The notes beneath the pieces are model-generated. The model was not told where the DNA came from. It worked only from the letters and a program-made list of their open reading frames with translations, and did no database searches. Both the position numbers and the translations under genes were made by a program. From Thermoplasmata archaeon (GTDB lineage: Archaea; Thermoplasmatota; Thermoplasmata; Lutacidiplasmatales; UBA184), in assembly GCA_035297105.1 (NCBI GenBank), contig DATGZO010000012.1, forward strand, positions 63,822 through 127,821: DNA of 64,000 nucleotides. The letters are read 5' to 3'. Below are positions 21,897 to 60,227 of this stretch, piece by piece; position 1 is the stretch's first letter; every line of letters begins with the position of its first letter.

Positions 21897-21906
21897 GTTG
21901 CCTCCC

Positions 21907-23610
21907 TCACAGGATCTGGGCGAGGGGGCCCAGGGCGATCACCGGAAGGAAGATCAGGGCGGTGATGACGATGAGGAACAGGGCCAGGTACAGCGTGAAC
22001 GTCCCGCTCGCCGTCCGGAGGGTCCCGGAGGTGGGGGGCATAGTCGGCTGTCGGGCGAACCGCTCCCCGACCATCAACATCGCATAGAATGGCACGTACC
22101 GGCCCACGAGCATGACGAGCGCCCCGGCCACGTTGAAGAACGGGGTGGTATCGGTGAATCCCCCGGTGGAGAGCGCGCTCCCGTTGTTCGCCGATTCGGA
22201 CGTGAACTCGTACAGGACCGACGTGAAGTTGTGGGAGGTCGCTCCGATGGCGGAAGTGTCGAGGGTGACGAACCCCCCCAGGACTGCGACGACGAACGGC
22301 AGGAAGATCGTCGCCGGATGGACCAGCAACGCGAGGGTCGACCACTTGACATGGGCCGTCTCGATCTTCTTCCCGAGATACTCGGGTGTTCGGCCGACCA
22401 TCAATCCACCGACGAAGATCGCGAGGACGGCGTATAGGAGGAGCATCCCGAACCCCGACCCCTCGCCGCCGGGCGTGCTCTGGGTGAACATCCCGAACAG
22501 GAGGACCATCTGGCTGACGGGGCTGAGCGCCCCGATCATCATGTTGTTCGCGCCGACGTTGCTGTACACGCTCACCACTTGGAAGAGCGACGCGTCGCCG
22601 AGACCGAACCGTGTCTCCTGGCCGACCGGATACCCGTTACTGGTCTGCGACCCCAGCCCCGCGACATCCGCAAGGGCCGGGTTCGAGGCCGCCTGGTAGA
22701 CGATGAAGAGAGTGAGGGCGACCACGAGGACGATCAGGATCGTCCCGAGGTACGGCCACGCCTCGTTGCGTCGTCGGATGATCTGCGCGAACGCGAACGG
22801 GGTCGAGAGCGGGATCAGGAGCATGAGGAACACTCCGAACAGGTCCGAGACCGCGGATGGGTTCGCGAAGGGATTGGCCATGTTGGCGGAGTACCACCCT
22901 CCCCCGTTAGTCCCGATGAGGGAGATCGACTGGTAGCTCGCGACCGGCCCGAGATAGATCGTCTGGGTCCCTCCCGTGATCGGGTGGGCGATGACGCTCG
23001 CGGTGAGGGTTTCGGGGACCCCCAGGACGACCATGACGAGGGCGCCCACCACCGAGAGCGGGATCAGCACCCGCGTCAGGGTCCGAACCATGTCGACGTA
23101 GTAGTTTCCTAGGGTCCCGTCCTTCCGGATGAACCCGCGGACCATCGCCGCGAAGACAGCGAGCCCGGTCGCCGCGGAGATGAAGAGCGCGAGCTGCCAA
23201 CCCAGGACGAGCGCGCCGAAGCTGATCTGGGACTCGTTGGTGAAGTGGGTGAAGTCGGTGTTGGTCGTGAAGCTGGACGCCGAGTGGAACGCGAGGTCCC
23301 ACGTCATGTTGGGGACGCCGGTCGGGTTGAAGGGAAGGCCCGCCTGCATGAAGAAGAACCAGAACAGGTAGGCGATGACGGCGCCGTTGACGAGCAGGAG
23401 CGCGGCCATGTATTCCCGCGCGGGCATCGACTTGCGGGGCGAAGTTCCCAGGAGGCGGTAAATCCCCCGCTCGAGGGGCGCGAGGACCACATCCCCCAGG
23501 ATCGGGCGGTTCGTGTAGACCTTCCCGAGGTACTCTCCGAAGAAGGGGGCGACCGCCACGGCGATGGCGAGAAGGACGACCACGTCCCACAGGGAGCGGA
23601 GGTCGATCAC
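21907..23610 (-). CDS. kdpA: Potassium-transporting ATPase subunit A
   Basis: 567 aa, about 10 TM helices, KdpA-like N-terminus 'LAIAVAVAPFFGEYLGKVY' and selectivity-filter-like Gly-rich loops. Confidence 0.85.
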   Translation of the reverse strand: MIDLRSLWDVVVLLAIAVAVAPFFGEYLGKVYTNRPILGDVVLAPLERGIYRLLGTSPRKSMPAREYMAALLLVNGAVIAYLFWFFFMQAGLPFNPTGVPNMTWDLAFHSASSFTTNTDFTHFTNESQISFGALVLGWQLALFISAATGLAVFAAMVRGFIRKDGTLGNYYVDMVRTLTRVLIPLSVVGALVMVVLGVPETLTASVIAHPITGGTQTIYLGPVASYQSISLIGTNGGGWYSANMANPFANPSAVSDLFGVFLMLLIPLSTPFAFAQIIRRRNEAWPYLGTILIVLVVALTLFIVYQAASNPALADVAGLGSQTSNGYPVGQETRFGLGDASLFQVVSVYSNVGANNMMIGALSPVSQMVLLFGMFTQSTPGGEGSGFGMLLLYAVLAIFVGGLMVGRTPEYLGKKIETAHVKWSTLALLVHPATIFLPFVVAVLGGFVTLDTSAIGATSHNFTSVLYEFTSESANNGSALSTGGFTDTTPFFNVAGALVMLVGRYVPFYAMLMVGERFARQPTMPPTSGTLRTASGTFTLYLALFLIVITALIFLPVIALGPLAQIL

Positions 23611-25551: not shown

Positions 25552-25634
25552 GGTGGTGCGACGGCCAGAGTGACCTCGCCCTTAGGGGCTTCCCTCTAGC
25601 GTGTCTCGCGAGGCGCGCCCGAGCGTCCGGAGCG

Positions 25635-26957
25635 TCAGAACCGACCGGGCTCGGGGGTCAACGCCGCGCGGCCCCCCATGTACGGGCGGAGTACCTCGGG
25701 AACGGTCACGGAGCCGTCGGGTTGCTGGTACTGCTCGAGGATCACGGCCAACGCACGCGACGTCGCGACGGCCGTGGAGTTGAGTGTGTGGGGCACCCGC
25801 TTCCCGGGTCGACCGGCCTTTCCGAGCCGGATGCCCAGTCGACGAGCTTGGTAATCCGCGCAATTCGAGCAGCTCACCACCTCGCGGTAGGCCTGCTGGC
25901 GGGGGAACCACGCCTCGACATCGTACTTCTTGGCGGCGACCGTACCCACGTCCCCGGTGCAGACGTGGACCACTCGATACGGGATCTCCAGGCGACGGAA
26001 GACCTCCTCGGCGTTGGCGCGGAGCTCCTCCAATATCGTGGGGGACTCTTCCGGTCGGCAGAACACGAACTGCTCGACCTTTTGGAACTGGTGGACCCGA
26101 AAGATCCCCTTCTGGTCGACTCCGTGGCCTCCGATCTCCTTGCGGAAGCACGGACTGATGCCGGCCAGGCGGACGGGGAGACGGTCCTCGTCCAGGATCT
26201 CCCCCTGGTACAGCGCGGCGAGGGGATGCTCGCTCGTCGCGATGAGGTAGAGGTCCTCTCCCTCGATCTTGTACATCACGTTCTCGAAATCTGCGAGGTC
26301 GGTGACGCCCTCGTACGGGTCGCGTCGGAGAGCGTAGGGCGGAGTGACCGGCGTGAAGCCCCGATCGACCAGGAGGTCGAGGGCGAATCGCTGCAGCGCG
26401 AGGTCGAGCAGCACGATCGGGCCCCGGAGGTAGTAGAAGCCGGCGCCGCTCACGCGTCGGGCCCGGTCGAACTCGGCCATGCCGAGCTCCTCGAGGACCT
26501 GGCCGTGTCCCTTCAGCTCCCCGGCGCCCTGCCGGGGATGGCCCCACGTCGCGAGGACGACGTTCTCGGAATCGTCCTTGCCGTACGGCACGGACGGGTC
26601 GAGCAGGTTCGGGAGGCGACGCAGGAGCGCGTCGCGGTGTCGGAGGAGCTCCCCTTCCCGTGCTTCGGTCTCCCGCAGGGTGTCGGGGATCGTCTTCGCC
26701 TCGGCGTCGAGCTCGGGAGAGGAGGCCCCCTTGGCCCGCGTCTCGCCGATCCGTCGGCTCAAGTCGTTGCGGCGGCGACGGAGCTCGTCGGCCGTGCGGA
26801 GGCACTCCCGCCATTCCGTGTCGGTCTTCCGCACCTCGTGAAAGATGGTGAGGTAGGCGGGGTTGCGGCGCCGGGCAAGGTTCTCCTCGACCTGGGCGGG
26901 TTCCTTGCGGAGGAGGTCGAGGTCGATCACGATAGGGCCGGAAGGCCCTCCGACCAA
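25635..26957 (-). CDS. serS: Seryl-tRNA synthetase
   Basis: N-terminal 'IDLDLLRKEPAQVEENL' coiled-coil arm. Class-II motifs 'FRVHQFQKVEQFVF' and 'GAGFYYLRG'. TTG start. Confidence 0.85.
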   Translation of the reverse strand: MVGGPSGPIVIDLDLLRKEPAQVEENLARRRNPAYLTIFHEVRKTDTEWRECLRTADELRRRRNDLSRRIGETRAKGASSPELDAEAKTIPDTLRETEAREGELLRHRDALLRRLPNLLDPSVPYGKDDSENVVLATWGHPRQGAGELKGHGQVLEELGMAEFDRARRVSGAGFYYLRGPIVLLDLALQRFALDLLVDRGFTPVTPPYALRRDPYEGVTDLADFENVMYKIEGEDLYLIATSEHPLAALYQGEILDEDRLPVRLAGISPCFRKEIGGHGVDQKGIFRVHQFQKVEQFVFCRPEESPTILEELRANAEEVFRRLEIPYRVVHVCTGDVGTVAAKKYDVEAWFPRQQAYREVVSCSNCADYQARRLGIRLGKAGRPGKRVPHTLNSTAVATSRALAVILEQYQQPDGSVTVPEVLRPYMGGRAALTPEPGRF

Positions 26958-27065
26958 AGTCTTTGCCCCCAGGGGGCCGGGACGCCCCGGAACGCCCCGC
27001 GGAGCCCCACCGGCAAACTCCTATGTACCCTCGCGGGGGATTCGCCCGGCGGAGTGGGGAGAGTC

Positions 27066-28562
27066 ATGCCTTCGAAGGTCGAGCAGTTCGGTCTGTTCAT
27101 TAACGGCAAGTGGAGCTCGCCGGCCAACGCGAAGCGATTCGAAACGGTGAACCCGGCGACCCGGGAACCGCTCGCCTCCTTCGTCGCGGGCACCCCCGCC
27201 GACGTGGACCGGGCCATCTCTGCGGCCCACGCGGCCTTCCCCGCGTGGCGGGACACGCCGGCTCCCAAGCGGGGCACCCTCCTGCTCGAAGCCGCCCGCA
27301 TCCTGACCGAACGGAAGAGCGCGGTCGGGCGGATCGTCACGCAGGAGATGGGGAAGGTCATCAGCGAGGGCCTGGGCGACGTCCAGGAATCGATCGACTT
27401 CATCGAGTACATGGCCGGCGAGGGACGGCGTCTGGTCGGCGAAACGGTCCCCTCGGAGCTGCGGTCCAAGTTCTGTCTCACCGTGCGCCAGCCGAAGGGG
27501 GTGGTCGCCTGCATCACGCCCTGGAACTTCCCCACCGCCATCCCGAACTGGAAGATCGCGGCGGCCCTCATCACGGGCAACACGATCGTATTCAAGCCCG
27601 CCTCCAACACCGCGCTCTGCGCGGCTCAGGTCGTCAAGGTCTACGAATCCGCGGGGATCCCGCCCGGGGTCCTCAATTTCGTCACCGGTTCCGGCAGTGT
27701 CGTCGGCACCGCCCTCGTCGAGGACCCCCGGATCCGGACGATCTCGTTCACGGGAGGTGTCGAGACCGGCCGGGATGTCTACGTGCGCGGCGCCAAGGGC
27801 CTCAAGATGGTCCACTTGGAGCTCGGAGGCAAGAACCCGGTGATCGTCATGGACGACGCGAACCTTCCCCTTGCCCTGGATGGCGTCCTGTTCGGCGCGT
27901 TCGGCACGAGCGGCCAGCGCTGCACCGCGACCAGCCGGCTCATCCTGCACGAGAAGGTCTACTCTCAGTTCCTCGGCATGCTCACCGACCGGCTGAAGAA
28001 GTTCACGGTCGGGGACCCGCTCGACCCGAAGACGGGGATGGGACCGGTCGCGTCGGCGGACCAGGAGCGCAAGATCTTGGAGTACATCGCGATCGGGAAG
28101 AAGGAGGCCAAGCTCGTCTGCGGCGGCGAGAAGCTGAAGGGCGGGATCTACGACCGCGGGTACTTCCTCGCCCCGACGATCTTCGAGACCCGCCACGGCA
28201 GTCGGATCTCGAAGGAGGAGATCTTCGGGCCCGTGCTCTCCGTGATCAAGGTCGCGGACTACGCCGAGGCGGTCCGGGTCGCGAACGACGTCGAGTACGG
28301 TCTCTCCTCCTCCATCTACACGCGCGACGTGAACCGGGCCTTCCGGGCGATCGAGGACCTCGAGGCGGGGATCACGTACGTCAACGCGCCCACGATCGGG
28401 GCGGAGGTCCACCTTCCCTTCGGGGGCGTCAAGAACACCGGGAACGGCGGCCGGGAGGCCGGCTCGGCCGCGATCGAGGAGTTCACCGAGGTCAAGACGG
28501 TCTTCGTCGACTTCTCCGACAAGCTCCAGAAGGCGCAGATCGACTCCGAAACGGCGGCATGA
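27066..28562 (+). CDS. NAD(P)-dependent aldehyde dehydrogenase
   Basis: 'FTGGVETGR', catalytic 'ELGGKNP' and 'GQRCTATSR' (Cys), 'EEIFGPV'. The 5' part of the track ORF upstream of the ATG at 27066 is artefact. Confidence 0.85.
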   Translation: MPSKVEQFGLFINGKWSSPANAKRFETVNPATREPLASFVAGTPADVDRAISAAHAAFPAWRDTPAPKRGTLLLEAARILTERKSAVGRIVTQEMGKVISEGLGDVQESIDFIEYMAGEGRRLVGETVPSELRSKFCLTVRQPKGVVACITPWNFPTAIPNWKIAAALITGNTIVFKPASNTALCAAQVVKVYESAGIPPGVLNFVTGSGSVVGTALVEDPRIRTISFTGGVETGRDVYVRGAKGLKMVHLELGGKNPVIVMDDANLPLALDGVLFGAFGTSGQRCTATSRLILHEKVYSQFLGMLTDRLKKFTVGDPLDPKTGMGPVASADQERKILEYIAIGKKEAKLVCGGEKLKGGIYDRGYFLAPTIFETRHGSRISKEEIFGPVLSVIKVADYAEAVRVANDVEYGLSSSIYTRDVNRAFRAIEDLEAGITYVNAPTIGAEVHLPFGGVKNTGNGGREAGSAAIEEFTEVKTVFVDFSDKLQKAQIDSETAA

Positions 28563-28774: not shown

Positions 28775-30257
28775 TCAGAACGGTCCGGTCCGGCCCGGGT
28801 TGTCGAAGTTCGTGAGGAGGAGCTGCCCGCGCGAGCGCGGACGGCCCACCGGCGCGATGAGCGGGTCCTCCTCGAGGGCCGGCATCGTGTCGGAGATCGG
28901 GACATCGACCAGGATCTCCCGGGTGCGTCCGCCCCGGCCGCGGGAGACGATCGTCGCCCGGATCAGGCCGAGGGATTCGAGCTCGGAGACGTAGTTGGAG
29001 ATCGAGCGGGCATGGAGAGGCTGGAGTCCCAAGCGCTCGGCGAGTCGGCGGTAGGCATCGTACACTTCTCCCGTGAGGACCCCGTTGCGCCGACGCTCGC
29101 ACGCCTGCAGGATCGCGTAGAGGAGGACCTTGCAGTGCGGCGGGAGCGTGCGGCAACAGTCCAGGATGATGTCCTGCTCGAGCCGGTTCTTCGCCTTCAC
29201 GACGTGGTCGGGCGTGATCCGCTTCGCCCGGTCCCGCTCCGCCATCTCGGCCGAGAGGCGGAGGAGGGCGAGGGCCCGGCGGGCGTCCCCGTTCTCGAGC
29301 GCGGCGTACGCGGCGCACCGCTCCACCACGCCCGGGTCGATGACCCCGTCGCGGAACGCTTCCTTTGCCCGGTCCCTAAGGATGTCCTGGAGCTGGAGCG
29401 CATCGTACGGCGGGAAGAGGATCTTCTCCTCGTTCAAGCGGCTGCGAACGCGCGCGTCGAGATGGTTCGTGAACTTCAAGTCGTTCGAGATCCCGAGCAG
29501 GATGAGGCGCGCGAGCTCGAGCTCGGTGTTGAGCTGGCTCAAGGTGTAGAGGACGCTGTCGCCGGACCGCGCCACGAGCCGGTCGATCTCATCGAGGACC
29601 AAGATGACGGTGCCGCCCTTCGTGTCGAGCAGTCGCCGCATGGCGGCCTGCACCCGGTCGAGCGACCAGCCGGTCGGGATCCGCTCGGCCTCCGTCTTCG
29701 CGAACGTGTTGCCCACGTTCTGCAGGAGCCCGTACGGCGTGTCGATGTTGCCGCAGTTGATGTAGATGAACGAGATGTGGCTCGCGAGCTCGGTGCGGCG
29801 CATCACGTCCTGGCGCACTTGGGCCACGACCGCGGTCTTCCCGGTCCCGATCTTGCCGTAGATCAGGAGGTTCGAGGGAGTATCGCCGCGGAGAGCGGGG
29901 GCGAGGACCTCGGCCACCTGGCGGATCTGCTCCTCCCGGTGCGGCAGGCGGCTGGGTATGTAGGAGTCGCGTAGGATCTCTCGGCTGCCGCGATAGAGCT
30001 CGCTCTTCGTCTCGAGAAGGGAGTCGATGAACGCGCCGGCGGTGGCGGTGGGTGCGGGTGGAGGGGCGGGGCTCCCCAATACGGGAGCCGTCGCCGGACC
30101 TCCACCCGTTGGGCGGTCGCTGACGGGGACGACCGCCCCGGTGGCGAAGGGCACTGGGTCTTGCCGGTCGGAGATGTCTATCGACCGGTTCTCAGGAGCA
30201 GGTGACACCGTCGATGCCTGCCCGGGCCTCGGGCGGGCTGTCGCACGTGCGAGGGCC
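28775..30257 (-). CDS. orc1: Orc1/Cdc6 replication initiator with Pro/Ala-rich N-terminal extension
   Basis: 'LLIYGKIGTGKTAVV' Walker A, 'ILVLDEID' Walker B, C-terminal winged helix. 'PSRLPHREEQI' matches the conserved Orc1 N-terminal motif. Start placed at MALARATA (30257); the alternative is 30427. Confidence 0.8.
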
Positions 30258-30354
30258 ATATCTACCTTTGGTAGATTTTTTTCGGCGAGTGACGTCGAAC
30301 GCGGAAATTTCTCCGGGTACCGGCTCGCGTCGCGACGTGACCTGGGTCGACGGC
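30258..30354. promoter_or_regulatory. orc1 upstream region: 7-bp hairpin ATCTACC-TTT-GGTAGAT, T7 run and GGAAATTTCTCC near-palindrome; candidate leaderless promoter and/or origin element
   Basis: Read directly. On the minus strand it reads AAAAAAATCTACCAAAGGTAGAT immediately 5' of the orc1 ATG. This is the most AT-rich stretch in a GC-rich locus. Confidence 0.35.
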
Positions 30355-30516
30355 TCACGCGCACTCGAGCGGCGTCGCATCCCAAGGGTCGAACCGCTCC
30401 CGACACTTCGGACAGTAAAGATAGCACTGGACTTCGCCGGAGATCGGGCCCTCCAGCAGTGCGCCGCAGTCGGGGCAGCGTCCCGGGGGAGGCCCCGATT
30501 CGGTCGTTCCGGCCAT
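30355..30516 (-). CDS. Small zinc-ribbon protein
   Basis: 'CPDCGALLEGPISGEVQCYLYCPKCRERF' is a CxxC...CxxC ribbon. Start taken at the internal Met. Confidence 0.4.
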   Translation of the reverse strand: MAGTTESGPPPGRCPDCGALLEGPISGEVQCYLYCPKCRERFDPWDATPLECA

Positions 30517-35216: not shown

Positions 35217-35933
35217 CTAGAACTTCTCGACGAGCTTGCGGACGGCCGCCCCACCATGCTGGAGGACGGGTCCCCCGTGGTAGCTCATGAGGGAGTCGAC
35301 CGAGAGCTGGCTCATGCGACGCGCGGAGATCTGGGCCGTCGGAGTGTGGTGGGTGTACTCGGGGGGGGTGAGCGTGATCTGGTTCCCGGCGCCGAAGAAC
35401 AGGTCGCCCGAGAAGAGGATCTTGCGCTCCGCCTGGTAATACGACGTGTGGCCGGGGGTGTGTCCGGGTGTGTGGTAGGCGATCAACCCTCCCGCCGCGT
35501 CCACCGCGTCCCCATCCTTCAGGACCTCGTCCACCTGGAACGGTTCCGCGGGGGGGGTCCCGGGTCCGTCGTACTTGGGCCGCTCGGCGATGTAGGCCGC
35601 CTCGATCCAGTGGGCAAAGGTGCGCGCCCGGGTCTTCTGGGCCAGGTGCTTCAGCGACCCGGTGTGGTCCCGGTGCAGGTGGGTGAGGAGGATCTTCGTG
35701 ACCGAAGTCGGCTCGACCTTTATCTTCGTGAGATACGCCTCCACCTTCTCGAAGGCCCCGGGGAGACCGGTATCGATCAAGGTCCAGGTCGAACCCTTGT
35801 CCCGTACGAGGTAGACGTGGGTCGTGAAGCTCGGATCCGGGTCGATCCCGTCGATCAGGTGCACTCCGGGTAGGATTTCGCCCATGGTCGTGGACGCGGG
35901 AGTCGCCGGGGCGATAAATCCGTTCGGAGCCAC
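35217..35933 (-). CDS. MBL-fold metallo-hydrolase
   Basis: 'LTHLHRDHTGS' (HxHxDH) and downstream His/Asp ligands ('YHTPGHTPGH'). Confidence 0.75.
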   Translation of the reverse strand: MAPNGFIAPATPASTTMGEILPGVHLIDGIDPDPSFTTHVYLVRDKGSTWTLIDTGLPGAFEKVEAYLTKIKVEPTSVTKILLTHLHRDHTGSLKHLAQKTRARTFAHWIEAAYIAERPKYDGPGTPPAEPFQVDEVLKDGDAVDAAGGLIAYHTPGHTPGHTSYYQAERKILFSGDLFFGAGNQITLTPPEYTHHTPTAQISARRMSQLSVDSLMSYHGGPVLQHGGAAVRKLVEKF

Positions 35934-36026: not shown

Positions 36027-38495
36027 ATGGCGCGCCGTATTTTGGTTTTGGGCCTGGCCGTACTGCTGATCGTATCGACCCTGATGGTGCTCGGCACCGG
36101 AGGGAGCCGCGCCCAGGTCGCGCCGCTGGCTCCGCCTTCCGCGGCCCCGCATCCCGCGGCCCCGCATCCGTCGGTCAACTCCATCCAGGTCGAAACGTAC
36201 GAAGGGAACGACGTCTACTACAACGACACGTACTTCGCGAGCGGGGGATACAACTACCCCGGCGAGAACATCCTCTTCTTTTGGGTCTATGACCCCACGG
36301 CCGACTCGAGGCTGAACTTCACGCTCAGCGACCCGAACGCGTCCCGCGACGGCGTGGGCTCCCCCGCGTTCACCGTCAACGTCCCGCTGAACACCACCAC
36401 CCATGAGTACTTCTCCTACCTCGCCGGCGTTTCCTACACCTTCCCCTCGTCCCTCGCGATCGGCGGGACCTGGGTCGTGAACGCCTCCGCCCCGCTCGGC
36501 GGCTCGGCCCAGTACAACATCACCGTCGCGACGTTCGGTTCCGACATGAGCGGGAGCCCGCGACCGTACACCGGTGTTCTCCCGGGCGAGTCGATCACCG
36601 CGGCCTGGCAACTGTACAATCTCGTGAACGGAGCGTACGCCACTCACGTCACCAACCTCGCCCTGGACGGCTGGTATTACTCCAACGGGAGCTACCACAA
36701 CCTGTTCCCGGGCGGCATCGTCAACGTCTCCGTCTCGGCGGCCGGGGACTACACCTTCACGGTTCCGGCGAACGCCTCCGTCACCACCTACCTGTACTTC
36801 GACCTCTGGCCGACGATCATCTCCAACGGGAAGTTGGCCGAGAACGAGAGCGACGAGATCTGGTGGGGTGTGGGCTCCGTGGACCTCCAGGTCGAGCAGG
36901 AGACCGAATACAATGGGGTCTGCCCCACGGGGTACGACAGCAGCTACTACTCGGGCTCCCTGGTCCAGGTCTGCGCCACGGTGGGCGCGCTCTGGAACGA
37001 TGAGCTCTACGGGGTACCCAACCTGCCCGTCTCGATCCACTTCTGGAACGGCCTGAGCGTCGTCACGCCCGGCGGAAGCCCCCCGACGACGCTGATGAGC
37101 AACTCGACCGGCAAGGTCTCGTTCTCCTACCTCGCGACCAGCCCGCCGCTCACGAGCGAGTACGTGTACCCCTACGAGAACTACCTGAACCTCTCGGTCA
37201 CCGACCCGGTCGCGACCTCCCCTACCTCCGACTGGTCGAAGTGGTCCAACACGTCGCTCTACGTGGACGTGAATGGAGCGACCGGAGGGGTAGCAGTCCA
37301 GCTCAACCAACTCGAATACTATCCCGGCCAGACCGTGACGGCCACCTGGAGCCTAAGTTCCACCAACACCGCTCAGACCGGCACGCTCACCGCCGTGGGC
37401 TGGTATGCGTACAACGAGCAGACCGACGCCTTCCTCGCCCAGGGGATGATCTCTTCGACCGCGTCGACCGGAACCTTCAACGTCGCGCTCCCGACGGGCT
37501 TCGTCGGTCCCTTCGTCGTCGAAGTGTACGCGGTCAACGCCACCACATCGTTCTACGGGGAGGCGTACGGGTACTCGACCACCCCGCGCCTGTTCCTCAA
37601 CCCGAGCTCGACCACGTTCACGCCCGGCTCGACCGTGACCATCACGGCGGAAGCGTACGGGGACGCCGCACTCACCGGGGCGACCATCACGTACCAGGTG
37701 TGGGCCAGTTTCGACCTCGGCAGGAACTACGGGAACTATGGGATCGTCGAGACCGGGACCGTCGCGAACAACACCGCGTTCACGATCGCCGTTCCGTCGT
37801 CCGCGGCCCCCGGCTACTACGAGGTCTACGGCTACTTGGGCTCGACCGCCTCCGGAATCGTGGCCAGCGATGAGCTGGAGATCGACCAGGTGTGGGGGTA
37901 CTACGTCACCTTGGGAGTGAACACCGCCTCGAGCTACTCCGATGGAAGCTACCAGCCGGGGCAGACCCTGACGGTCGCCTTCCAGATCACCCCGTACGGG
38001 AACGCACCTCTGCCGGTGTTGTACACCTTCTATGTCGATCTCAACGGCGCACAGATCTACGACCAGCTGTCGTCCGCGAGCACCTCCGGAACCTTCCAGA
38101 TCACGATCCCCTCGGGGCAACCGAGCGGGATCGCCTTCCTGGAACTGGAGTTGGACGGAACGTACCTCTCCGGCAACTCGTGCGGCAGCGGCTACTGCTA
38201 CGGGGAGACGGCGATCACCATCAACGCGCACCCGTCCGTCCTGAGCATGGAGGTCGGAGGGAACAGCGGCATCACGGTCGGCTGGCTGATCCTCCTGATC
38301 GTGATCCTCGTGGTGGCGGTCGTGCTGGCGCTCCTGATCCGGCGGAAGAAGACGCCGCCCTCCTCCGGAGGGGCCTCGACCACGACCCCGATGTCGCCGC
38401 CCGCGCCCGCTCCTTCGGGAACGGGGGCCCAGGAGTGGAGTGAGCCGGCCCCGAACCAGCCACCCATGCCGACCCCTCCGCCGGGCAGCACCTAG
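36027..38495 (+). CDS. Large cell-surface glycoprotein (signal peptide, many N-glycosylation sequons, C-terminal TM anchor and Pro/Thr-rich tail)
   Basis: N-terminal 'MARRILVLGLAVLLIVSTLMVLG'. More than 25 NxS/T sequons. C-terminal 'ITVGWLILLIVILVVAVVLALLIRRKK' followed by a PT-rich tail. Confidence 0.7.
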   Translation: MARRILVLGLAVLLIVSTLMVLGTGGSRAQVAPLAPPSAAPHPAAPHPSVNSIQVETYEGNDVYYNDTYFASGGYNYPGENILFFWVYDPTADSRLNFTLSDPNASRDGVGSPAFTVNVPLNTTTHEYFSYLAGVSYTFPSSLAIGGTWVVNASAPLGGSAQYNITVATFGSDMSGSPRPYTGVLPGESITAAWQLYNLVNGAYATHVTNLALDGWYYSNGSYHNLFPGGIVNVSVSAAGDYTFTVPANASVTTYLYFDLWPTIISNGKLAENESDEIWWGVGSVDLQVEQETEYNGVCPTGYDSSYYSGSLVQVCATVGALWNDELYGVPNLPVSIHFWNGLSVVTPGGSPPTTLMSNSTGKVSFSYLATSPPLTSEYVYPYENYLNLSVTDPVATSPTSDWSKWSNTSLYVDVNGATGGVAVQLNQLEYYPGQTVTATWSLSSTNTAQTGTLTAVGWYAYNEQTDAFLAQGMISSTASTGTFNVALPTGFVGPFVVEVYAVNATTSFYGEAYGYSTTPRLFLNPSSTTFTPGSTVTITAEAYGDAALTGATITYQVWASFDLGRNYGNYGIVETGTVANNTAFTIAVPSSAAPGYYEVYGYLGSTASGIVASDELEIDQVWGYYVTLGVNTASSYSDGSYQPGQTLTVAFQITPYGNAPLPVLYTFYVDLNGAQIYDQLSSASTSGTFQITIPSGQPSGIAFLELELDGTYLSGNSCGSGYCYGETAITINAHPSVLSMEVGGNSGITVGWLILLIVILVVAVVLALLIRRKKTPPSSGGASTTTPMSPPAPAPSGTGAQEWSEPAPNQPPMPTPPPGST

Positions 38496-44128: not shown

Positions 44129-45325
44129 CTAGAAAACGGACAACTTCCCGGTCAACAGAAGCTTCGGGATGGTGTCGATCTGCTCGAACCACGAGTTCGC
44201 GACCGCCTCGGCCGTCGGCTTGACCTGGGCGAGCTTCACGCCGCTCGCGGGGAGGATCTGCAGGCTCGCGACCTGGGGTTCGTCGACCGGTTTGCCGATC
44301 TGCGAAAGGATCCGGACGTGGACCTCCTTGACGTTCCCGCCGGTCTCCTTCACGATGTCGCCCGCGATCAGGTTCCCGAGCAGGTTGTAGATCTTCCCCA
44401 CGTGGTTGATGGGGTTCTTTCCGGCCGAGGCTTCCAGGCTCATCGGTCGGCAGGGCGTGATCAACCCATTGGCGCGGTTGCCGCGTCCCACGGAGCCGTC
44501 GTCGCCTGCTTCCATCGAGCAGCCGGTGACCGTGAGGTAGTACCGGCCGAGCTCGGGGTCGTCCGCCGTGTTCACGTCGATCTGGACCTCGCGGTGCGTC
44601 AGCTTGGCGGCCTGGTCCGCGAGCTTCTCCGTGATCTGGGCGCAGACGTTCTGGTAGGCGTCGCCGTCGGAGATCTCCCGGTCGACGAGCGCGGCGGCGA
44701 CCGTGAGGTGGATCTGGTTCCCCGAGCGGTAGCCCATCACTTTGACGTCCTCCCCGAGCGCAGGGAGCTTCTTCTTCAGCTTCAGGGTCAGGAATCGCTC
44801 GCTCTCGAGCACGAGGCGCTCCAGGTCGGAGAGGGGCGCGAAACCGACGCCGAAGGAGGTGTCGTTGGAGAGGACCGTCTTCTGCTCGAAGACCCCACGG
44901 AGGTCGATCGAGCCCGACCCGATCTTGGAATCGAACTCGACATCGTGCTCCAAGTCGATGTGGGAACAGACGGATCCCACGTACTTCTTGGCCGCCTCGA
45001 TCGCGGTGTCGTGGATGGGCAATTTCTCCTTGTTGACCTCGGTGGTCGCTCGGCCGACCAAGAGCATGTAGATCGGCTTCGTGACCTTCCCGCCGCCGAA
45101 CTTCGGCTCGGAGGCCCCCCCGACGACCTGGGTCTCGTCCGTGTTGTGGTGGAGGATCCTCCCGAACTCGTCGAGGTAGAGGCGACAGAGCGCCCGGCTG
45201 ACCGATTCCGAGACCCCGTCCGCGATCGAGTCGGGGTGCCCGAGGCCCTTCCGCTCGACCAGCTCGACGGCCTGGTCTTCGATATGGACGGTGCGCAGTG
45301 GCTCCACCTGAACGTTTCGGGCCAT
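44129..45325 (-). CDS. mat: S-adenosylmethionine synthetase, archaeal type
   Basis: '[11 protein letters not shown]' and overall archaeal MAT architecture, about 398 aa from the ATG at 45325. The upstream part of the track ORF is artefact. Confidence 0.8.
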
Positions 45326-45442
45326 GGGGGTACTCGAGGTCGGCCGAGACGGGGTGGGGTTTAACCCTTGCGAGATGGCGGGGATGCACGCCACTTGCGT
45401 CCGGGGAAACCCGGGACGGTGGCCCTCCCGGGTCCTCTCGGA

Positions 45443-45462
45443 CAGGCCTATAGCAGGCCCCG
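45443..45462 (+). promoter_or_regulatory. TATA-like element within an inverted repeat (AGGCCTATAGCAGGCC), about 25 bp upstream of the GcvH-TusA start
   Basis: Read directly: GGCCT ... AGGCC arms around CTATAG. Lies in the mat / gcvH-tusA divergent intergenic region. Confidence 0.35.
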
Positions 45463-45476
45463 TACCTCCCCGAGGC

Positions 45477-46175
45477 GTGGAGATCGCGGGATGTCCCCTG
45501 CCTGAGGATCGGTTATACAACCTCGAGCACGACGTCTGGTGGTCCCCCGAGGGTGACACGGCCCGAGTCGGCGTGCTCGGCACCCTCGCGGCCTTTGCCG
45601 GGCCGTTCGTCTCGTTCTCCTTCCGCCCGGTCGAGGGCGTCGTGGCCCGGGGTCGGAGCATCGCGACCGTCGAGAGCATGCGGTACACCGGAGCGGTCCG
45701 GCTCCCGGTGGAAGCCGAGATCCTCGAGAGGAATCCCGCGGTGCGGGAACGCCCCCGGCTCCTGAACGATGCCCCTTACGGCGAGGGATGGGTCGCGCGG
45801 GTCCGACCGACCCAGGCGGACGAGGTGCCGCGGTACCTCGAAACCGCGGCCCAGGTGGCGACCCGTCTCGAAGAACGGATCCGCACCCAGCGGATCCGCT
45901 GCTGGCCCGCCACCCCGGACCTCGAGCTGTACGAGATCGGGATCGAATGTTCCGCCGTGCTCACCATGCTCAACGAGGAGCTCGCCCGGCGACCGCCGGG
46001 GGCCCACATCCTTCTCGTGACCGACGACCCGACCAGCCCGATCGAGATGGTCCGCTGGTCCGACCAGACCGGCTACCCGGTCCTGGCCCGGCGCGACGAG
46101 GGCACGCTCCACCAGTTCCTCGTCCGCAAGGACCCGGATCCGAGGCCCCGCGTGCGACGCGGGTCATCGCTCTGA
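45477..46175 (+). CDS. Fusion protein: glycine-cleavage-H-like lipoyl-carrier domain + TusA-like sulfur-carrier domain
   Basis: N-terminal 'YNLEHDVWW...GVLGTLAAFAGPFVSFSF...ESMRYTGAVRLPVEAEILERN...NDAPYGEGWVARVRPT' follows the GcvH pattern (HEW, lipoyl-Lys region, PYGEGW). C-terminal 'IRCWPATPDLELYE...HILLVTDDPTSPIEMVRWSDQTGYPV' is TusA/SirA-like (CPxP-type Cys). GTG start at 45477 inferred. Confidence 0.55.
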   Translation: MEIAGCPLPEDRLYNLEHDVWWSPEGDTARVGVLGTLAAFAGPFVSFSFRPVEGVVARGRSIATVESMRYTGAVRLPVEAEILERNPAVRERPRLLNDAPYGEGWVARVRPTQADEVPRYLETAAQVATRLEERIRTQRIRCWPATPDLELYEIGIECSAVLTMLNEELARRPPGAHILLVTDDPTSPIEMVRWSDQTGYPVLARRDEGTLHQFLVRKDPDPRPRVRRGSSL

Positions 46176-46232
46176 GCTCGGCCGAGCCAGCACCCCCTTT
46201 GAGGGGGAGGAAAGGGTTCGAACGATCCCGGA

Positions 46233-47090
46233 CTACGGCTTTTCGATCGGGGTCCGGACCAAGTTCCCCCACTCGGTCCACGAGCCGTCGTAATTGCGGA
46301 CGTCGGGGTACCCGAGGAGGTACTTCAGGACGAACCAGGTGTGGCTCGAGCGCTCCCCGATGCGGCAGTACGTGATGACCGGCAGGCTCGAGACGACTCC
46401 CTTGCCCCCGTAGAGGGCCTCCAGCTCCTCGCGCGACTTGAACGTGCCATCCTCCTTGACAGCCTGGGCCCACGGGATGTTCTTCGCGCCGGGGATGTGG
46501 CCTCCGCGCTGCGCGTGCTCGGTCGGGTACTCGGGGGGCGCGGTGATCTCGCCCGAGAACTCCTTCGGCCCGCGGACGTCGACGAGGGCGGATTTCCCGC
46601 CCTTGACCTCGGGGAGAACCTTGCGGACGTCGTCGAGATAGGCGCGCAGCTTGAGATCGGGGTGGCCGGGGACGTACTTCGTGTGGGTCACATGGGGAGC
46701 GTCCTTGGTGAGCGGGCGGTCCTCCGCGATCCACTTCTTGCGCCCGCCGTTGAGGAGCTTCAAGTGCTTCGCCCCGTAGTACGTGAAGACCCAGTAAGCG
46801 AACGCCGCGAACCAGTTGTTGAAGTCGCCGTAGAGGACGACCGTGGTCGCGTCGTCGATGCCGGCCTTACCGAACAGCGAAGCGAAGGCCTCGCTGGAGA
46901 GGATGTCTCGGGCGACCGGGTCGTTGATGTCCTTCCGCCAGTCGAACAGGACCGAGCCCGGGACGTGGGCCAATTCGTAGTTCGCCGCCGGATCGTAATC
47001 CACTTCCACGACCCGGACCTGCGGGTCGTTCAGGTGGGCTGCCAGCCAATCGTTCTCGACCAGGACCTCAGGGTGCGCGTACGCCGCCAT
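46233..47090 (-). CDS. sseA: Thiosulfate / 3-mercaptopyruvate sulfurtransferase (tandem rhodanese)
   Basis: Two rhodanese domains; active-site loop 'CRIGERSSHT' (Cys-containing) in the C-terminal domain. Confidence 0.8.
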   Translation of the reverse strand: MAAYAHPEVLVENDWLAAHLNDPQVRVVEVDYDPAANYELAHVPGSVLFDWRKDINDPVARDILSSEAFASLFGKAGIDDATTVVLYGDFNNWFAAFAYWVFTYYGAKHLKLLNGGRKKWIAEDRPLTKDAPHVTHTKYVPGHPDLKLRAYLDDVRKVLPEVKGGKSALVDVRGPKEFSGEITAPPEYPTEHAQRGGHIPGAKNIPWAQAVKEDGTFKSREELEALYGGKGVVSSLPVITYCRIGERSSHTWFVLKYLLGYPDVRNYDGSWTEWGNLVRTPIEKP

Positions 47091-47220: not shown

Positions 47221-47538
47221 TCACCCGCGCCGACCGCGCTTCGGTAGGGCCGCGTCGGAGATCTCGATCGTTTCCGGGTCGAAGCCGAGCTTCGCGAGCT
47301 CGTCCCGGATGCGGGTGCGGTGGTCGCCCTGAAGATAGACCTCTCCGTCGACGACGGACCCGCCGGTCGCGAGGCGGTTCTTGAGCGTCCGGGTGGTCTC
47401 CTCGAGGTCGACCCCCGGCGGGAAGCCGGAGATGACCGTCGCGGGCTTGTTGTAACGTCGGGGCTCGGCCCGGACGCGGATCCGGGCGGTCTCTCGGTCG
47501 AGGGCGGAAAGGATCTCATCGAATTCGTCGTTCGGCAT
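47221..47538 (-). CDS. sui1: Translation initiation factor aSUI1 (eIF1 homologue)
   Basis: 'IRVRAEPRRYNKPATVISGF...LKNRLATGGSVVDGEVYLQGDHRTRIRDELAKLGF' matches the SUI1 fold. Start taken at Met 'MPNDEF'. Confidence 0.7.
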   Translation of the reverse strand: MPNDEFDEILSALDRETARIRVRAEPRRYNKPATVISGFPPGVDLEETTRTLKNRLATGGSVVDGEVYLQGDHRTRIRDELAKLGFDPETIEISDAALPKRGRRG

Positions 47539-47700
47539 CGTTAGCTGCTCCTCATGGAACGCCGTACCCCGGCGCCGTATCGAGAAGGAGGAGGGTGGAC
47601 GGCCGCTCGGCCCGACGCGGACCAACGAGCGGCTTCTTGCGGGGGAGCACCGGCGGCTCCATACCCGGCACACCGTATGAACGTTCCGGGGACCCTCGCC

Positions 47701-50230: not shown

Positions 50231-50626
50231 TCAGTGACCGCAGCCGCACCCGCCGCCGTTCTCCGAATTGCTGCCGCAGGACGTGCATCCGCCCGCCTTG
50301 CCGGCGGCATCCGGCTCGGGAAGAGTGGGGTTGGTGATCTTGAATCCGGACTCCTGGAGCCCTTCGACGTAGTCGATGACCGCCCCGTCCACGAACTTGG
50401 TGCTGGTTGGGTCGACGAGCAGTCGGTAGCCATCGCCCGTGATGACCTCGTCGTCGGCCCGGGGTTTCGCGAACGCGAGTCCGAACTGGACCCCGCTCGC
50501 GCCACCGCCGCAGCAGCTGCCGCCCGACGGTTGGGCGTAGACGCGCACGCCGACTTCGGGGCCCTGGCCCCGGATCAGGGTTCGCACTTGCTGGGACGCG
50601 GCGGGTCGAATCTCTACATGGATCAT
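50231..50626 (-). CDS. HesB/IscA/SufA-family iron-sulfur cluster insertion protein
   Basis: 'GGSCCGGG' and C-terminal 'CGCGH'-type Cys ligands, with the A-type carrier fold pattern 'GYRLLVDPTS'. Confidence 0.65.
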   Translation of the reverse strand: MIHVEIRPAASQQVRTLIRGQGPEVGVRVYAQPSGGSCCGGGASGVQFGLAFAKPRADDEVITGDGYRLLVDPTSTKFVDGAVIDYVEGLQESGFKITNPTLPEPDAAGKAGGCTSCGSNSENGGGCGCGH

Positions 50627-57357: not shown

Positions 57358-59400
57358 TTACGCCTTGGCCGCCGCGGCGGGCCGGCGGTCGGGCGAGGCC
57401 GCCGAGTCCCGCTTGATCTCGCGGATGCGGTCGCGGATCCGGGCCGCCTCCTCGAAGTCGAGCCGCTCGGCGGAGAGGTGCATCTCCTCCTCGAGGTTCG
57501 CGAGAAGCAGCGGGAGCTTCTCCTTCCACTTCTTGCCGAGTCCCGAGGTCGAGAGCTCGGTGGACCCTTCGGGCGTGCCGAGCAGCGCCCGCACCTCCTT
57601 CTGGACCGATTCGGGGACGATGCCGTGGACCCGATTGTAGTCGACCTGGGCGGTGCGCCGTCGCGTCATCTCGTCGATCGCGCGCCGCATCGAGCCCGTG
57701 GTCCGGTCCGCGTAGAGGACGACCTTGCCGCGTTCGTTCCGGCTCGCCCGTCCCGCGGTCTGGACGATCGAGGTCTCGCTGCGCAGGTAGCCCTCCTTGT
57801 CGGCGTCCAAGATCGCCACGAAGCTGACCTCGGGCAGGTCCAACCCCTCCCGGAGGAGGTTGATCCCGACCAGTACATCGAACTGGCCGAGCCGAAGGTC
57901 GCGCAGCACTTCGACTCGCTTCAGAGTCTCGACGTCCGAGTGCAGGTAGCGGACCTTGAGACCGAGCTTCGTCAGGTAGTTCGCGAGCTCCTCGCTCGTC
58001 CGCTTCGTGAGCGTCGTGACGAGGGCGCGGTCGCCCTCGGCGATGCACCGACGAAGCTCGCCGACCAGGTCCTCGATATGCCCTGCGAGCGGGCGTACCT
58101 CGATCGGAGGGTCGACCAGGCCGGTGGGCCGGATGATCTGCTCGACGACCCCCTTCGACACCTTGTGCTCGAACGGGCCGGGTGTCGCCGAGACGAAGAC
58201 CGCCTGCGGGACGCGAGTGAGGAACTCCGGGAACGTCAGGGGCCGGTTGTCCCGGCAGGAGGGAAGGCGCCAGCCGAACTCGACGAGATTGTCCTTGCGG
58301 CTCCGGTCGCCCTTGTACATCCCCTGGAGCTGCGGGATCGTGGCGTGGGACTCGTCGAGGAAGACGAGCAGGTCCTTCGGGAAGAAGTCGAGGAGGGTGT
58401 AGGGGGGCTCTCCCGGCTTTCGTCCGGCGAAGTAGCGCGAGTAGTTCTCCACGCCCGAGCAGTAGCCGGTCTCCCGAAGCATCTCGAGGTCGTAGTTGAC
58501 CCGCCCCTTGAGCCGCTGCGCCTCGACGATCTTCTCCGCGTCCGCGAGCTCCTTGACACGGACGTCCCGTTCCTTCTCGATCTCGTGGAGGATGCCGCCC
58601 ATCCGCTCGTCCACCGTAAGAAAATGGGTCGCAGGGAACACCGAGAGCTGATCCAGGTCCCGCCGTTCCTCCCGCGTGATCGGATCCAGCTCGGCGATCG
58701 CGGAGACGACCCGGCCATCGAGGACGATCCGGTGTACCGTCTCGCCCGCGCCCATCACATCCAGCGTGCCCCCGCGAACACGGAACCGGCCCCGCTTGAG
58801 CTCCATGTCGTTGCGCTGGTACTTCATCCGGATGAGCTGGTCGATCAGCTCCTGACGACCGATGTCCTGCCCCACGCGCAGACCGACCACGTTGGCGCGG
58901 TAGTCCTCGGGAGAACCCAAGCCGTAGATGCAACTCACGGAGGCGACGACCAGGACGTCCCGCCGGGTGAGCAACGCCTGAGTCGCGCGGTGCCGAAGGC
59001 GGTCGATCTCCTCGTTGATCGACATGTCCTTCTCGATGTAGAGATCGATCTGGGGGACGTACGCCTCGGGCTGGTAGTAGTCGTAGTAGCTGACGAAGTA
59101 CTCGACCGCGTTCCGGGGGAAGAGCGCCCGGAACTCGCTGACGAGTTGCGCGGCGAGCGTCTTGTTGGGGCTCACGACCAGGGTCGGGCGCTGCAGCCGC
59201 TGGACGGTGTGCGCCATCGTGAACGTCTTGCCGCTACCGGTGACGCCCAAGAGGGTGACGTACTTCTCGCGCCGTTTGAGCCGGGCGACGACCTCGTCGA
59301 TCGCCCTCGGCTGGTCCCCCTGGGGCACCATGTCGGTCTCGAGCTCGAAGTGCCCGGGCAGCTCCGGTTCAGCCTTCGCCGTCGTCGCTTTCGGGCTCAC
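57358..59400 (-). CDS. uvrB: Excinuclease ABC subunit B
   Basis: 'LLGVTGSGKTFTMA' Walker A, beta-hairpin region, helicase motifs, C-terminal 'LEEEMHLSAERLDFEEAARIRDRIREI' UvrC-interaction (UVR) domain. Confidence 0.9.
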   Translation of the reverse strand: MSPKATTAKAEPELPGHFELETDMVPQGDQPRAIDEVVARLKRREKYVTLLGVTGSGKTFTMAHTVQRLQRPTLVVSPNKTLAAQLVSEFRALFPRNAVEYFVSYYDYYQPEAYVPQIDLYIEKDMSINEEIDRLRHRATQALLTRRDVLVVASVSCIYGLGSPEDYRANVVGLRVGQDIGRQELIDQLIRMKYQRNDMELKRGRFRVRGGTLDVMGAGETVHRIVLDGRVVSAIAELDPITREERRDLDQLSVFPATHFLTVDERMGGILHEIEKERDVRVKELADAEKIVEAQRLKGRVNYDLEMLRETGYCSGVENYSRYFAGRKPGEPPYTLLDFFPKDLLVFLDESHATIPQLQGMYKGDRSRKDNLVEFGWRLPSCRDNRPLTFPEFLTRVPQAVFVSATPGPFEHKVSKGVVEQIIRPTGLVDPPIEVRPLAGHIEDLVGELRRCIAEGDRALVTTLTKRTSEELANYLTKLGLKVRYLHSDVETLKRVEVLRDLRLGQFDVLVGINLLREGLDLPEVSFVAILDADKEGYLRSETSIVQTAGRASRNERGKVVLYADRTTGSMRRAIDEMTRRRTAQVDYNRVHGIVPESVQKEVRALLGTPEGSTELSTSGLGKKWKEKLPLLLANLEEEMHLSAERLDFEEAARIRDRIREIKRDSAASPDRRPAAAAKA

Positions 59401-60227
59401 GAGGGTCCCTCCGGTTCCCCGCGAGAGGCCCCGTAGCCCCGCGGGTCGATCGTGACGGGGGCGAACCCAAGAGCTCCGATATCGGCGGTGACCCGGGCGG
59501 CGGTCGCCGGGACCGAGAGGAGAGCGACTTCGTCCGGGTCGACCTCAATGCGGGCAGCGCCGTCCTCGACGCGAACGCGGACCCGTCGGAAACCCCGAGC
59601 GAGCAAGAGCGCCTCGGCCGCCTCGATGCGGGCGAGAAGATCCCCGTCGATCGCATGGCCGTGGGCGACGCGGGAGGCGAGGCAGGCGTCGGACGGTTGA
59701 TCGGCATTCGGCAGGCCTCGGACCCGGGCGACCCGTCGCACGTCGGACTTGGTCCAGCCGCCCCAGGCCAGCGGATGGTCGAACCCCGCCTCATCCATGG
59801 CGCGCAGGCCGGGCCGGTCGTCGTGCAGGTCATCCGCCTGGACGCCGTCCAGGAACTGAAGGATCCCCCGGCCGTCCCCGAATTCCCGCAGGCGGCGGGT
59901 CTCCACGGAGCGACAGAAGTAGCAGCGGTCGCTGGGGTTCGCCCGGTATTCCGCGTTCTCGAGCGGATCCGCCCGGACGAGGTGATGCTCGATCCCGATC
60001 GCCCGAGCGACCTCGGTCGCGCGTTCGACCTCCGCGCGGGAGACGGCCGGGCCCGTCAGGGTCACCGCGACGGCCCGCGAGCCCAGCGCCTCGAACGCCA
60101 GCGACGCCACCAGGGCGGAATCGACGCCGCCCGACAAGGCCACCAGCGCCGGACCGCGTTCCCGGATCCGTTCGACGAGCGTGCGCTCGCGGACAGGAAG
60201 TGCCGACGACGAGACCGACGCGACCAC
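59397..60227 (-). CDS. larE: LarE-family PP-loop ATPase (ATP-dependent sulfur transferase)
   Basis: 'VALSGGVDSALVA' PP-loop. 'EYRANPSDRCYFCR', 'ADDLHDDRPGLRA' and 'SDACLASR' match LarE/TIGR00268 motifs. Stop overlaps the uvrB start (ATGA). Confidence 0.65.
   Translation of the reverse strand: MVASVSSSALPVRERTLVERIRERGPALVALSGGVDSALVASLAFEALGSRAVAVTLTGPAVSRAEVERATEVARAIGIEHHLVRADPLENAEYRANPSDRCYFCRSVETRRLREFGDGRGILQFLDGVQADDLHDDRPGLRAMDEAGFDHPLAWGGWTKSDVRRVARVRGLPNADQPSDACLASRVAHGHAIDGDLLARIEAAEALLLARGFRRVRVRVEDGAARIEVDPDEVALLSVPATAARVTADIGALGFAPVTIDPRGYGASRGEPEGPS

Follow-up and report, generated by a model that had tools for sequence, protein, structure and literature searches.

The subject of this analysis is a 64,000-nucleotide stretch of DNA from a Thermoplasmata archaeon (contig DATGZO010000012.1 of assembly GCA_035297105.1, positions 63,822 to 127,821), hereafter called the window, and within it a gene that joins a GcvH-family domain and a TusA-family domain in a single chain. 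The window has a G+C content of 68%, and its nearest relatives are metagenome-assembled genomes (MAGs) that bear the label 'Thermoplasmata archaeon' and come from soil, peat and acidic environments. The fusion gene lies on the plus strand (45477..46175), starts with GTG, ends with TGA and encodes 232 residues. An N-terminal domain with the GcvH fold and LbpA-like features (residues 1-138; 45477..45890) is followed by a C-terminal domain with the TusA fold (residues 145-219; 45909..46133). The next gene, on the minus strand (46233..47090), encodes a two-domain rhodanese of 285 residues and of the thiosulfate sulfurtransferase (TST) type, in which Pfam recognizes two Rhodanese stretches. An earlier reading of this DNA, made from the sequence alone and referred to here as the original prediction, had noted this adjacent two-domain rhodanese but described the two genes as divergent; they are convergent, with stop codons 57 bp apart. 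The divergent neighbour upstream of the fusion is an archaeal S-adenosylmethionine (SAM) synthetase (44129-45325, minus strand).

Concerning the fusion itself, both domains were recovered with Pfam: GCV_H at residues 13-133 (E value 3.8e-21, 75.7 bits) and TusA at residues 155-218 (E value 6.7e-7, 29.5 bits, the cut-off being 28.6). HDVWW and PYGEGW, the motifs pointed out previously, both occur in the sequence. An AlphaFold2 (AF2) model, calculated with a 47-sequence alignment as input, displayed a mean pLDDT of 96.8 and a pTM of 0.87. When the model was compared with the PDB using Foldseek, the N-terminal half matched the H protein 1onl (TM score 0.93, root-mean-square deviation (rmsd) 1.4 Å) and the C-terminal half matched TusA in 3lvk/3lvj (TM score 0.87-0.88, rmsd 1.3-1.6 Å), while no PDB structure spanned both halves. 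With hhalign, E. coli TusA was aligned with the C-terminal domain at 94.8% probability over 75 ungapped columns. As the Pfam domains, the confident model and the Foldseek matches to both halves agree, the protein is a genuine covalent fusion of a GcvH-family and a TusA-family domain, as had been proposed, and not an artefact of gene calling. A merged or frameshifted gene call was considered and rejected, as at least 280 proteins share this architecture and length and the confidence of the AF2 model is high over the whole chain. The protein fell below every curated NCBIfam cut-off (GcvH 72.9 against 117, TusA 18.8 against 78); among the GcvH equivalogs, NF002270 (72.9 against 117) and TIGR00527 (48.8 against 115.85) were not reached.

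There are at least 280 full-length fusion homologues, all of about 215-240 residues. Homologues were found in 126 species-level genomes, and nearly all of the 80 that were examined are labelled as Thermoplasmata MAGs. Related taxa, in which the original prediction had proposed to look for the fusion, thus carry it. An exhaustive search with a hidden Markov model (HMM) of the family recovered approximately 40 clusters of full-length fusions at the 50% identity level. The same search returned many stand-alone GcvH-like proteins of about 145 residues, with an N-terminal GC..P.DL.Y and often with a Cys at the end. In the following, the close set refers to 120 homologues (alignment A1), wider residue counts refer to the 280 full-length fusion proteins, and gene neighbourhoods refer to 84 loci found with profile A1, which cover the Thermoplasmata clade only. 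More distant fusion homologues (alignment A2), whose identity with the window protein is about 35-39%, were found on contigs of about 50% G+C. One of these lineages (locus L090) is archaeal, as judged from an aEF-2 equivalog. Members of the family are automatically annotated as 'glycine cleavage system H protein' or 'hypothetical protein', and some carry the automatic JGI label 'glycine cleavage system H lipoate-binding protein/TusA-related sulfurtransferase'. The first of these labels is misleading for the fusion family. We found no description of a GcvH/LbpA-TusA fusion, of the missing lysine or of the cysteine triad described below in the searchable literature. The component parts are all of known kinds, and the conserved gene pair is apparently undescribed in that literature.

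The original prediction had assigned a lipoyl-attachment region to the GcvH-like half. When the family profile was aligned with 1onl, 1dxm and 3a8i, Arg69 (codon 45681..45683, plus strand; VESMR69Y) was found opposite the lipoyl-lysine of VESVK in these H proteins, at the position that carries this lysine in GcvH and LbpA. Position 69 is Arg in 120/120 close homologues; family-wide, the counts are R 206, K 65, T 7, V 1 and S 1 (n=280). The LbpA-type domain of the window protein cannot be lipoylated, because Arg replaces the lipoyl-lysine. A relay onto a lipoate-like cofactor, for which the original prediction had itself named this lysine as decisive, is untenable for the window protein, as R69 is invariant among its close homologues and the column is variable in the family as a whole. 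The hairpin at the former lipoylation site has been kept: E66 and G72 are invariant in A1, and E66 is found in at least 90% of the sequences in the wider alignment A4. The interchange of Lys and Arg at position 69 suggests a need for a positive charge at the tip of this hairpin rather than for covalent attachment, for which only Lys would serve.

Three cysteines of the fusion are almost invariant. Cys6 (codon 45492..45494, plus strand), in the context GCPLPEDRLY, corresponds to the N-terminal cysteine of LbpA and is Cys in 278/280 proteins. Cys142 (45900..45902, plus strand; RIRCWPATP) lies in the inter-domain linker, three residues ahead of the start of the TusA homology, at the point where stand-alone relatives end with a Cys; it is the equivalent of the C-terminal cysteine of LbpA and is also conserved in 278/280. 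Cys158 (45948..45950, plus strand) stands opposite Cys19 of E. coli TusA in the ungapped hhalign alignment (GIECSAVL against GLRCPEPV) and is conserved in 279/280. All three are kept together in 277 of the 280 fusion proteins. The conservation of the TusA cysteine was therefore confirmed, at a residue other than the one expected: the original prediction had taken RCWPATP for the TusA Cys motif, and the cysteine of that motif is C142 in the linker. The motif around C158 is ECSAV in the window protein; some 90% of the 280 have C-[SA]-A-V, and only 2-5 have CPxP. One protein (P0172) lacks both C6 and C142; it retains C158 and carries a canonical TusA motif, CPGP.

LbpA proteins have been described as differing from GcvH by a pair of N- and C-terminal cysteines, together with a strictly conserved lysine (Cao et al. 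2018, eLife, PMC6067878). By this description, C6 and C142 of the fusion correspond to the LbpA-specific pair. The N-terminal domain is 34% identical to LbpA P0398, a protein encoded in an shdr cluster, with which it has GCPLPxDxLY in common. With the family profile, scores of 91-97 bits were obtained for LbpA-type proteins, compared with 53-64 bits for canonical GcvH. We then have a domain that is LbpA-like by its cysteines and yet lacks the defining lysine. Among 33 stand-alone relatives, 17 possess both cysteines, 11 neither, 5 only the N-terminal one and none only the C-terminal one (Fisher p 2e-5, uncorrected for relatedness), and several end in C-x-x-C. Two stand-alone relatives ending in G-C were examined (L091 and L092), one of them being the protein to which the N-terminal domain is 34% identical. 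Both are encoded at the end of type I shdr clusters with the order DsrE-like, Fer4, CCG, HdrA-like, Fer4, CCG, hypothetical, LbpA, and one of the two clusters has a lipoate ligase and a radical-SAM gene upstream. The GcvH-like half can accordingly be counted as LbpA-type, in line with the LbpA comparison drawn by the original prediction.

The best solved relatives of the partner rhodanese are the Thermus thermophilus enzyme 1uar (E value 2.3e-111 over the full length, likewise with two domains and with CRIAERS where the window protein has CRIGERS) and the Mycobacterium tuberculosis thiosulfate sulfurtransferases of the CysA2/CysA3/SseA type. From a reading of the alignment, the identity with the T. 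thermophilus enzyme is about 60%. E. coli SseA, a 3-mercaptopyruvate sulfurtransferase (1urh) after which the original prediction had labelled the gene, is a far more remote relative (3.5e-34). By homology, the active-site residue is Cys242 (codon 46365-46367, minus strand) in the loop CRIGERS, which is invariant in six orthologues. A C-R-x-G-x-R/T loop in the C-terminal rhodanese domain is what we take to be the mark of the TST type. We know of no reported association of rhodaneses of the 1uar or M. tuberculosis type with a GcvH/TusA fusion.

In 79 of the 84 clade loci a convergent rhodanese gene lies 44-344 bp from the fusion, and in most of the others the contig breaks off too near the gene. 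The SUI1 and ABC transporter genes beyond it are also syntenic, forming a rhodanese-SUI1-ABC block (72, 68 and 64 of 84 loci), and the upstream side varies. The pairing is kept far beyond the window clade, in genomes where the fusion homologues are only 35-39% identical to the window protein and the rhodaneses, from lineages of about 50% G+C, are 64-65% identical to that of the window. In L085 and L089, where the neighbours are citrate synthase, phosphoribosyltransferase and IMP dehydrogenase (IMPDH), the rhodanese gene runs into the 3' end of the fusion gene. A gap of 21 bp separates the two in L087, where a flavoprotein resembling sulfide:quinone oxidoreductase (SQR) is the divergent upstream gene. 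In L088 and L090, with elongation factor EF-2 and alcohol dehydrogenase (ADH) as neighbours, insertions separate the two genes and the rhodanese is found 1.5 and 3.8 kb downstream. As the pair has been retained in no fewer than four flanking contexts unrelated to one another, a functional link between the two proteins is favoured.

Some further features of these neighbourhoods were recorded. The SQR-like flavoprotein of L087 (6650-7822 of that locus, minus strand) has human SQOR as its best solved match (E value 6e-25), a hint that the pair may operate on sulfide or sulfane sulfur. When the two partners were compared within the same genomes (L002, L085, L087, L088 and L090), the rhodaneses were 64-81% identical and the fusions 35-74%. 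The SUI1/YciH-type gene (47221-47541, minus strand) is directly downstream of the rhodanese gene on the same strand and is found in 72/84 clade loci; its product is 88-100% identical in all loci but one, and the gene might share a transcript with the rhodanese.

We also searched the surroundings for genes of known sulfur relays, applying Pfam to nearly all plausible genes of the window and using precomputed Pfam hits for ±10 kb of locus L001, whose fusion protein is 94% identical. The Pfam search of the 64-kb window detected no CCG-domain, HdrA-like, Dsr, DsrE, lipoate ligase, LipS, gcvT or gcvP gene, and the flanks of L001-L004 and L085-L090, taken over ±8-10 kb, contained no shdr, CCG-domain, DsrE, LplA or LipS genes. 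The original prediction had suggested a check for sHdr, Dsr and lipoate-ligase genes; within the 64 kb, no link of the fusion to sHdr is visible. It had also pointed to an IscA-type carrier and a LarE sulfur-insertase within about 15 kb. Both genes exist: the IscA-type gene at 50231-50626 (Pfam), 4 kb from the fusion, and a LarE equivalog, an ATP-dependent sacrificial sulfur transferase, at 59397-60227 on the minus strand (TIGR00268, 238.7 bits against a cut-off of 150), 13 kb from it. They stand amid genes for transporters and DNA repair, only 27 of the 84 homologous loci have IscA, and there is no evidence that either belongs with the fusion. The larE gene and the end of uvrB (57358-59400) share a few bases, and no other lar gene was detected among the scanned open reading frames (ORFs) of the window.

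Sulfur transfer from rhodanese to TusA has been established experimentally in other systems, and in Aquifex TusA co-purifies with LbpA2 and LbpA3 (PMC11094781); a fusion of TusA with an LbpA-like domain fits this known partnership. Setting these precedents beside the domain identities, the lost lysine, the conserved cysteine triad, the affinity to LbpA and the conserved gene pairing, the reading we prefer is that the fusion is a cysteine-based, lipoate-independent carrier of sulfane sulfur, fed from the rhodanese through the TusA cysteine to the LbpA-type cysteine pair. We regard the chances of this reading as about evenly balanced. The TST-type rhodanese would form a persulfide on the cysteine of its CRIGERS loop from thiosulfate or another sulfane-sulfur donor, and the sulfur would then be passed to C158 of the TusA domain. 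From C158 it would move within the same chain to the C142/C6 pair, where it would either be held for a downstream acceptor or be resolved as H2S together with a C6-C142 disulfide. The direction of transfer, the hand-off within the chain, the donor and the final acceptor are the parts of this scheme that we infer. In a more specific form, the protein might be a lipoate-independent descendant of LbpA whose C6/C142 pair handles sulfur, supplied by the attached TusA domain and a dedicated TST-type rhodanese, the whole constituting a module independent of sHdr; this form we put forward tentatively and with some doubt.

Several points weigh against the cysteine-based relay. The TusA domain is barely above the Pfam cut-off, and it does not conform to CPxP, the motif called characteristic of the TusA active site, whose cysteine is the sulfur-binding residue (PMC11094781). 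The fusion and rhodanese genes, being convergent, cannot be co-transcribed; in L053 there is no rhodanese at the expected place; and the adjacency inside the Thermoplasmata clade may partly reflect inheritance of a syntenic block. In addition, a metal-ligand role is equally possible for three invariant cysteines. C6, C142 and C158, perhaps with the conserved Glu157, might bind Zn or Fe-S at the domain interface, in which case the protein, instead of carrying persulfide, would serve for instance as a sensor of redox state or sulfide or as an Fe-S-related factor. Such a site would agree with the conservation of the three cysteines at about 99%, with the fixed mutual orientation of the domains predicted by the model (pTM 0.87), with the replacement of CPxP by E-C-[SA]-A-V, with the C-x-x-C ends of several stand-alone relatives and with the IscA gene 4 kb away in the window clade. 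However, the same cysteine pair is found in LbpA, where a sulfur-binding role was proposed and no metal is mentioned in the part of the paper that deals with it (PMC6067878). The conserved partner of the fusion is a sulfurtransferase, IscA accompanies it in only 27/84 loci, and a fourth ligand was not identified. We judge a metal site at the interface to be unlikely. A different view would leave catalysis to the TusA cysteine alone, with the GcvH-like part degenerated into a module for docking or solubility and with C6 and C142 in a structural disulfide or devoid of any chemical role. The lipoyl-lysine has indeed been lost, and the GcvH fold commonly serves as a platform for protein-protein docking, as in the glycine cleavage system. 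TusA by itself also suffices as a carrier in other systems (PMC11094781). This view seems improbable to us: it hardly accounts for the 99% conservation of C6 and C142, which extends to proteins of only 24% identity, structural disulfides are uncommon in cytoplasmic proteins, and the hairpin of the former lipoylation site is conserved (E66, G72, and K or R at position 69).

The lipoate relay of the original prediction, in which lipoate, or a cofactor resembling it, on the GcvH-like domain would receive sulfur from the rhodanese by way of TusA, as in a compact sHdr/LbpA system, draws on the LbpA-like character of that domain, on a Lys at the attachment position in about 23% of the wider family, and on the interaction of TusA with LbpA in Aquifex and the type II sHdr carried by some Thermoplasmatota (PMC11094781). 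Against it stand R69, which the window protein shares with all 120 close homologues, a family-wide variable column where LbpA is defined by a strictly conserved Lys (PMC6067878), and the lack of any sHdr, CCG-domain, DsrE, LplA or LipS gene both in the window and in the sequence flanking L001-L004 and L085-L090. Taken together, we consider it very improbable. As for the rhodanese, it could be an unrelated housekeeping gene whose position is inherited synteny without functional meaning. The convergent orientation, the equal synteny of SUI1 and the ABC transporter within the clade, the much higher conservation of the rhodanese than of the fusion, as would be expected for a housekeeping enzyme, and its absence at L053 all point that way. 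The pair nevertheless recurs in at least four contexts that have no other gene in common (with MAT or AHSA1; with citrate synthase and IMPDH; with the SQR-like gene; with EF-2 and ADH), and an adjacency without meaning is, in our estimation, quite unlikely.

Returning to the cysteine-based relay, its components can be compared with known systems. With LbpA the fusion shares the GcvH fold, the N-terminal Cys within G-C-x-x-P-x-D-L-x-Y and a Cys after the C-terminal helix. It differs in having Arg in place of the lipoyl-Lys that is described as strict in LbpA (PMC6067878). LbpA is, moreover, a stand-alone protein of about 145 residues encoded with shdr, lipoate-ligase and LipS genes, whereas the N-terminal domain of the fusion is joined to TusA with none of these nearby. 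Compared with GcvH (PDB 1onl, 3a8i, 1htp), the fold (TM score 0.93, rmsd 1.4 Å), the PYGxGW motif and the ES hairpin are common to both, whereas the fusion lacks the lipoyl-Lys, has two extra cysteines, scores below the equivalog cut-offs and has no gcvT or gcvP in its window. The C-terminal domain resembles TusA/SirA proteins (E. coli TusA, PDB 1dcj and 3lvj; sHdr- and Dsr-associated TusA) in fold (rmsd 1.3-1.6 Å) and in the Cys at the Cys19 position. It differs from them in having C-S-A-V for CPxP, in its NCBIfam TusA score (18.8 against 78) and in its location C-terminal to another domain. CstA of Staphylococcus aureus, from the work of Higgins et al. in Biochemistry (2015), is reportedly a multidomain sulfurtransferase with rhodanese, TusA and TusD-like parts and is said to act in a sulfide/persulfide context together with SQR. 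CstA likewise reportedly has a TusA-type domain covalently joined to a Cys-bearing relay domain, and an SQR-like gene adjoins the fusion in L087. In CstA, however, the partners are rhodanese and DsrE/TusD-like domains, while the fusion has the GcvH/LbpA fold and its rhodanese is a separate gene. TusA (PMC11094781) and the fusion are alike in being paired with a rhodanese as the likely sulfur donor.

LbpA, TusA and rhodaneses are all known to take part in the network that moves sulfur through the cytoplasm. The fusion family bears on the role of the two LbpA-specific cysteines and on a direct hand-over of sulfur from TusA to LbpA: it joins both proteins, keeps the three cysteines at about 99% and drops the lipoylation site, providing a simple test system of one protein and one rhodanese without lipoate. 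Its interest lies mainly in sHdr/LbpA sulfur trafficking, as the LbpA cysteines are here separated from lipoate and TusA is physically tied to an LbpA-like domain. The conserved sulfur-handling pair occurs in abundant uncultured Thermoplasmata of soil and peat and in at least one other archaeal group. If the protein did indeed descend from LbpA and work without lipoate, nature would have provided in it a separation-of-function variant showing what the LbpA cysteines do, a 'Rosetta stone' for direct TusA-to-LbpA sulfur transfer, and part of a self-contained sulfane-sulfur module widespread among soil and peat archaea.

The start of the gene and its surroundings were examined as well. The GTG start assigned by the original prediction is backed by more than 120 homologues of about 231 residues beginning M/V-E-I-x-G-C. 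A longer ORF from an ATG at 45324 was rejected, as it overlaps the SAM synthetase gene on the opposite strand, the homologues start at MEIxGC, and a conserved TATA-like box lies 28 bp upstream of the shorter start. Archaeal TATA boxes at about this distance from the start fit leaderless transcripts. The TATA-like core, read from the sequence, occupies 45449..45452 on the plus strand (-28..-25 from the GTG). Among 80 distinct homologous upstream regions, the A+T fraction was 0.82, 0.94 and 0.88 at -28..-26, against about 0.2 elsewhere. We infer from the spacing that the box may serve as the promoter of a leaderless mRNA. The original prediction had placed the TATA element inside an inverted repeat. 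The element is found at -28..-25, but the repeat, with its 5-bp GGCCT/AGGCC stem, is not conserved even in L001, whose protein is 94% identical.

A AAAAGGTTG-like motif, of which caaaaggttgtcg is an example, was noticed in 41 of the 80 upstream regions (loci L002-L083 and others), where it occupies -54..-50 relative to the fusion start and precedes the TATA-like box by a constant spacing. It is missing from the window (45400-45476) and from the window clade, where the SAM synthetase is the divergent neighbour, and it may be a binding site for a regulator. On the other side of the gene, the 57-bp gap between the convergent stop codons (46176-46232) opens with a perfect 12-bp palindrome, GCTCGGCCGAGC (46176-46187), and also holds CCCCC-TTTGA-GGGGG, a short G+C-rich hairpin without a T-run. 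The palindrome and hairpin may constitute a termination or stability element shared by the two genes.

Concerning the remainder of the window, a metallo-beta-lactamase gene (35217-35933) was considered as a persulfide dioxygenase (PDO) and dropped, since the structures it matches best are of the LACTB2 and glyoxalase II types (E values about 1e-13), with no match to PDO. Four large ORFs, at 36027-38495 (plus), 25582-26814 (minus), 27021-28412 (minus) and 15395-16948 (plus), display a strong coding-type bias in the G+C content of third codon positions (GC3), with a Pfam match that is absent or weak; the one of 822 residues has a weak match to GEVED as its sole Pfam hit. KdpA and a P-type ATPase, presumably KdpB, are encoded at 19761-23610 on the minus strand. 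The window also contains an Orc1/Cdc6 gene (28775-30427, minus strand), and a replication origin may be near.

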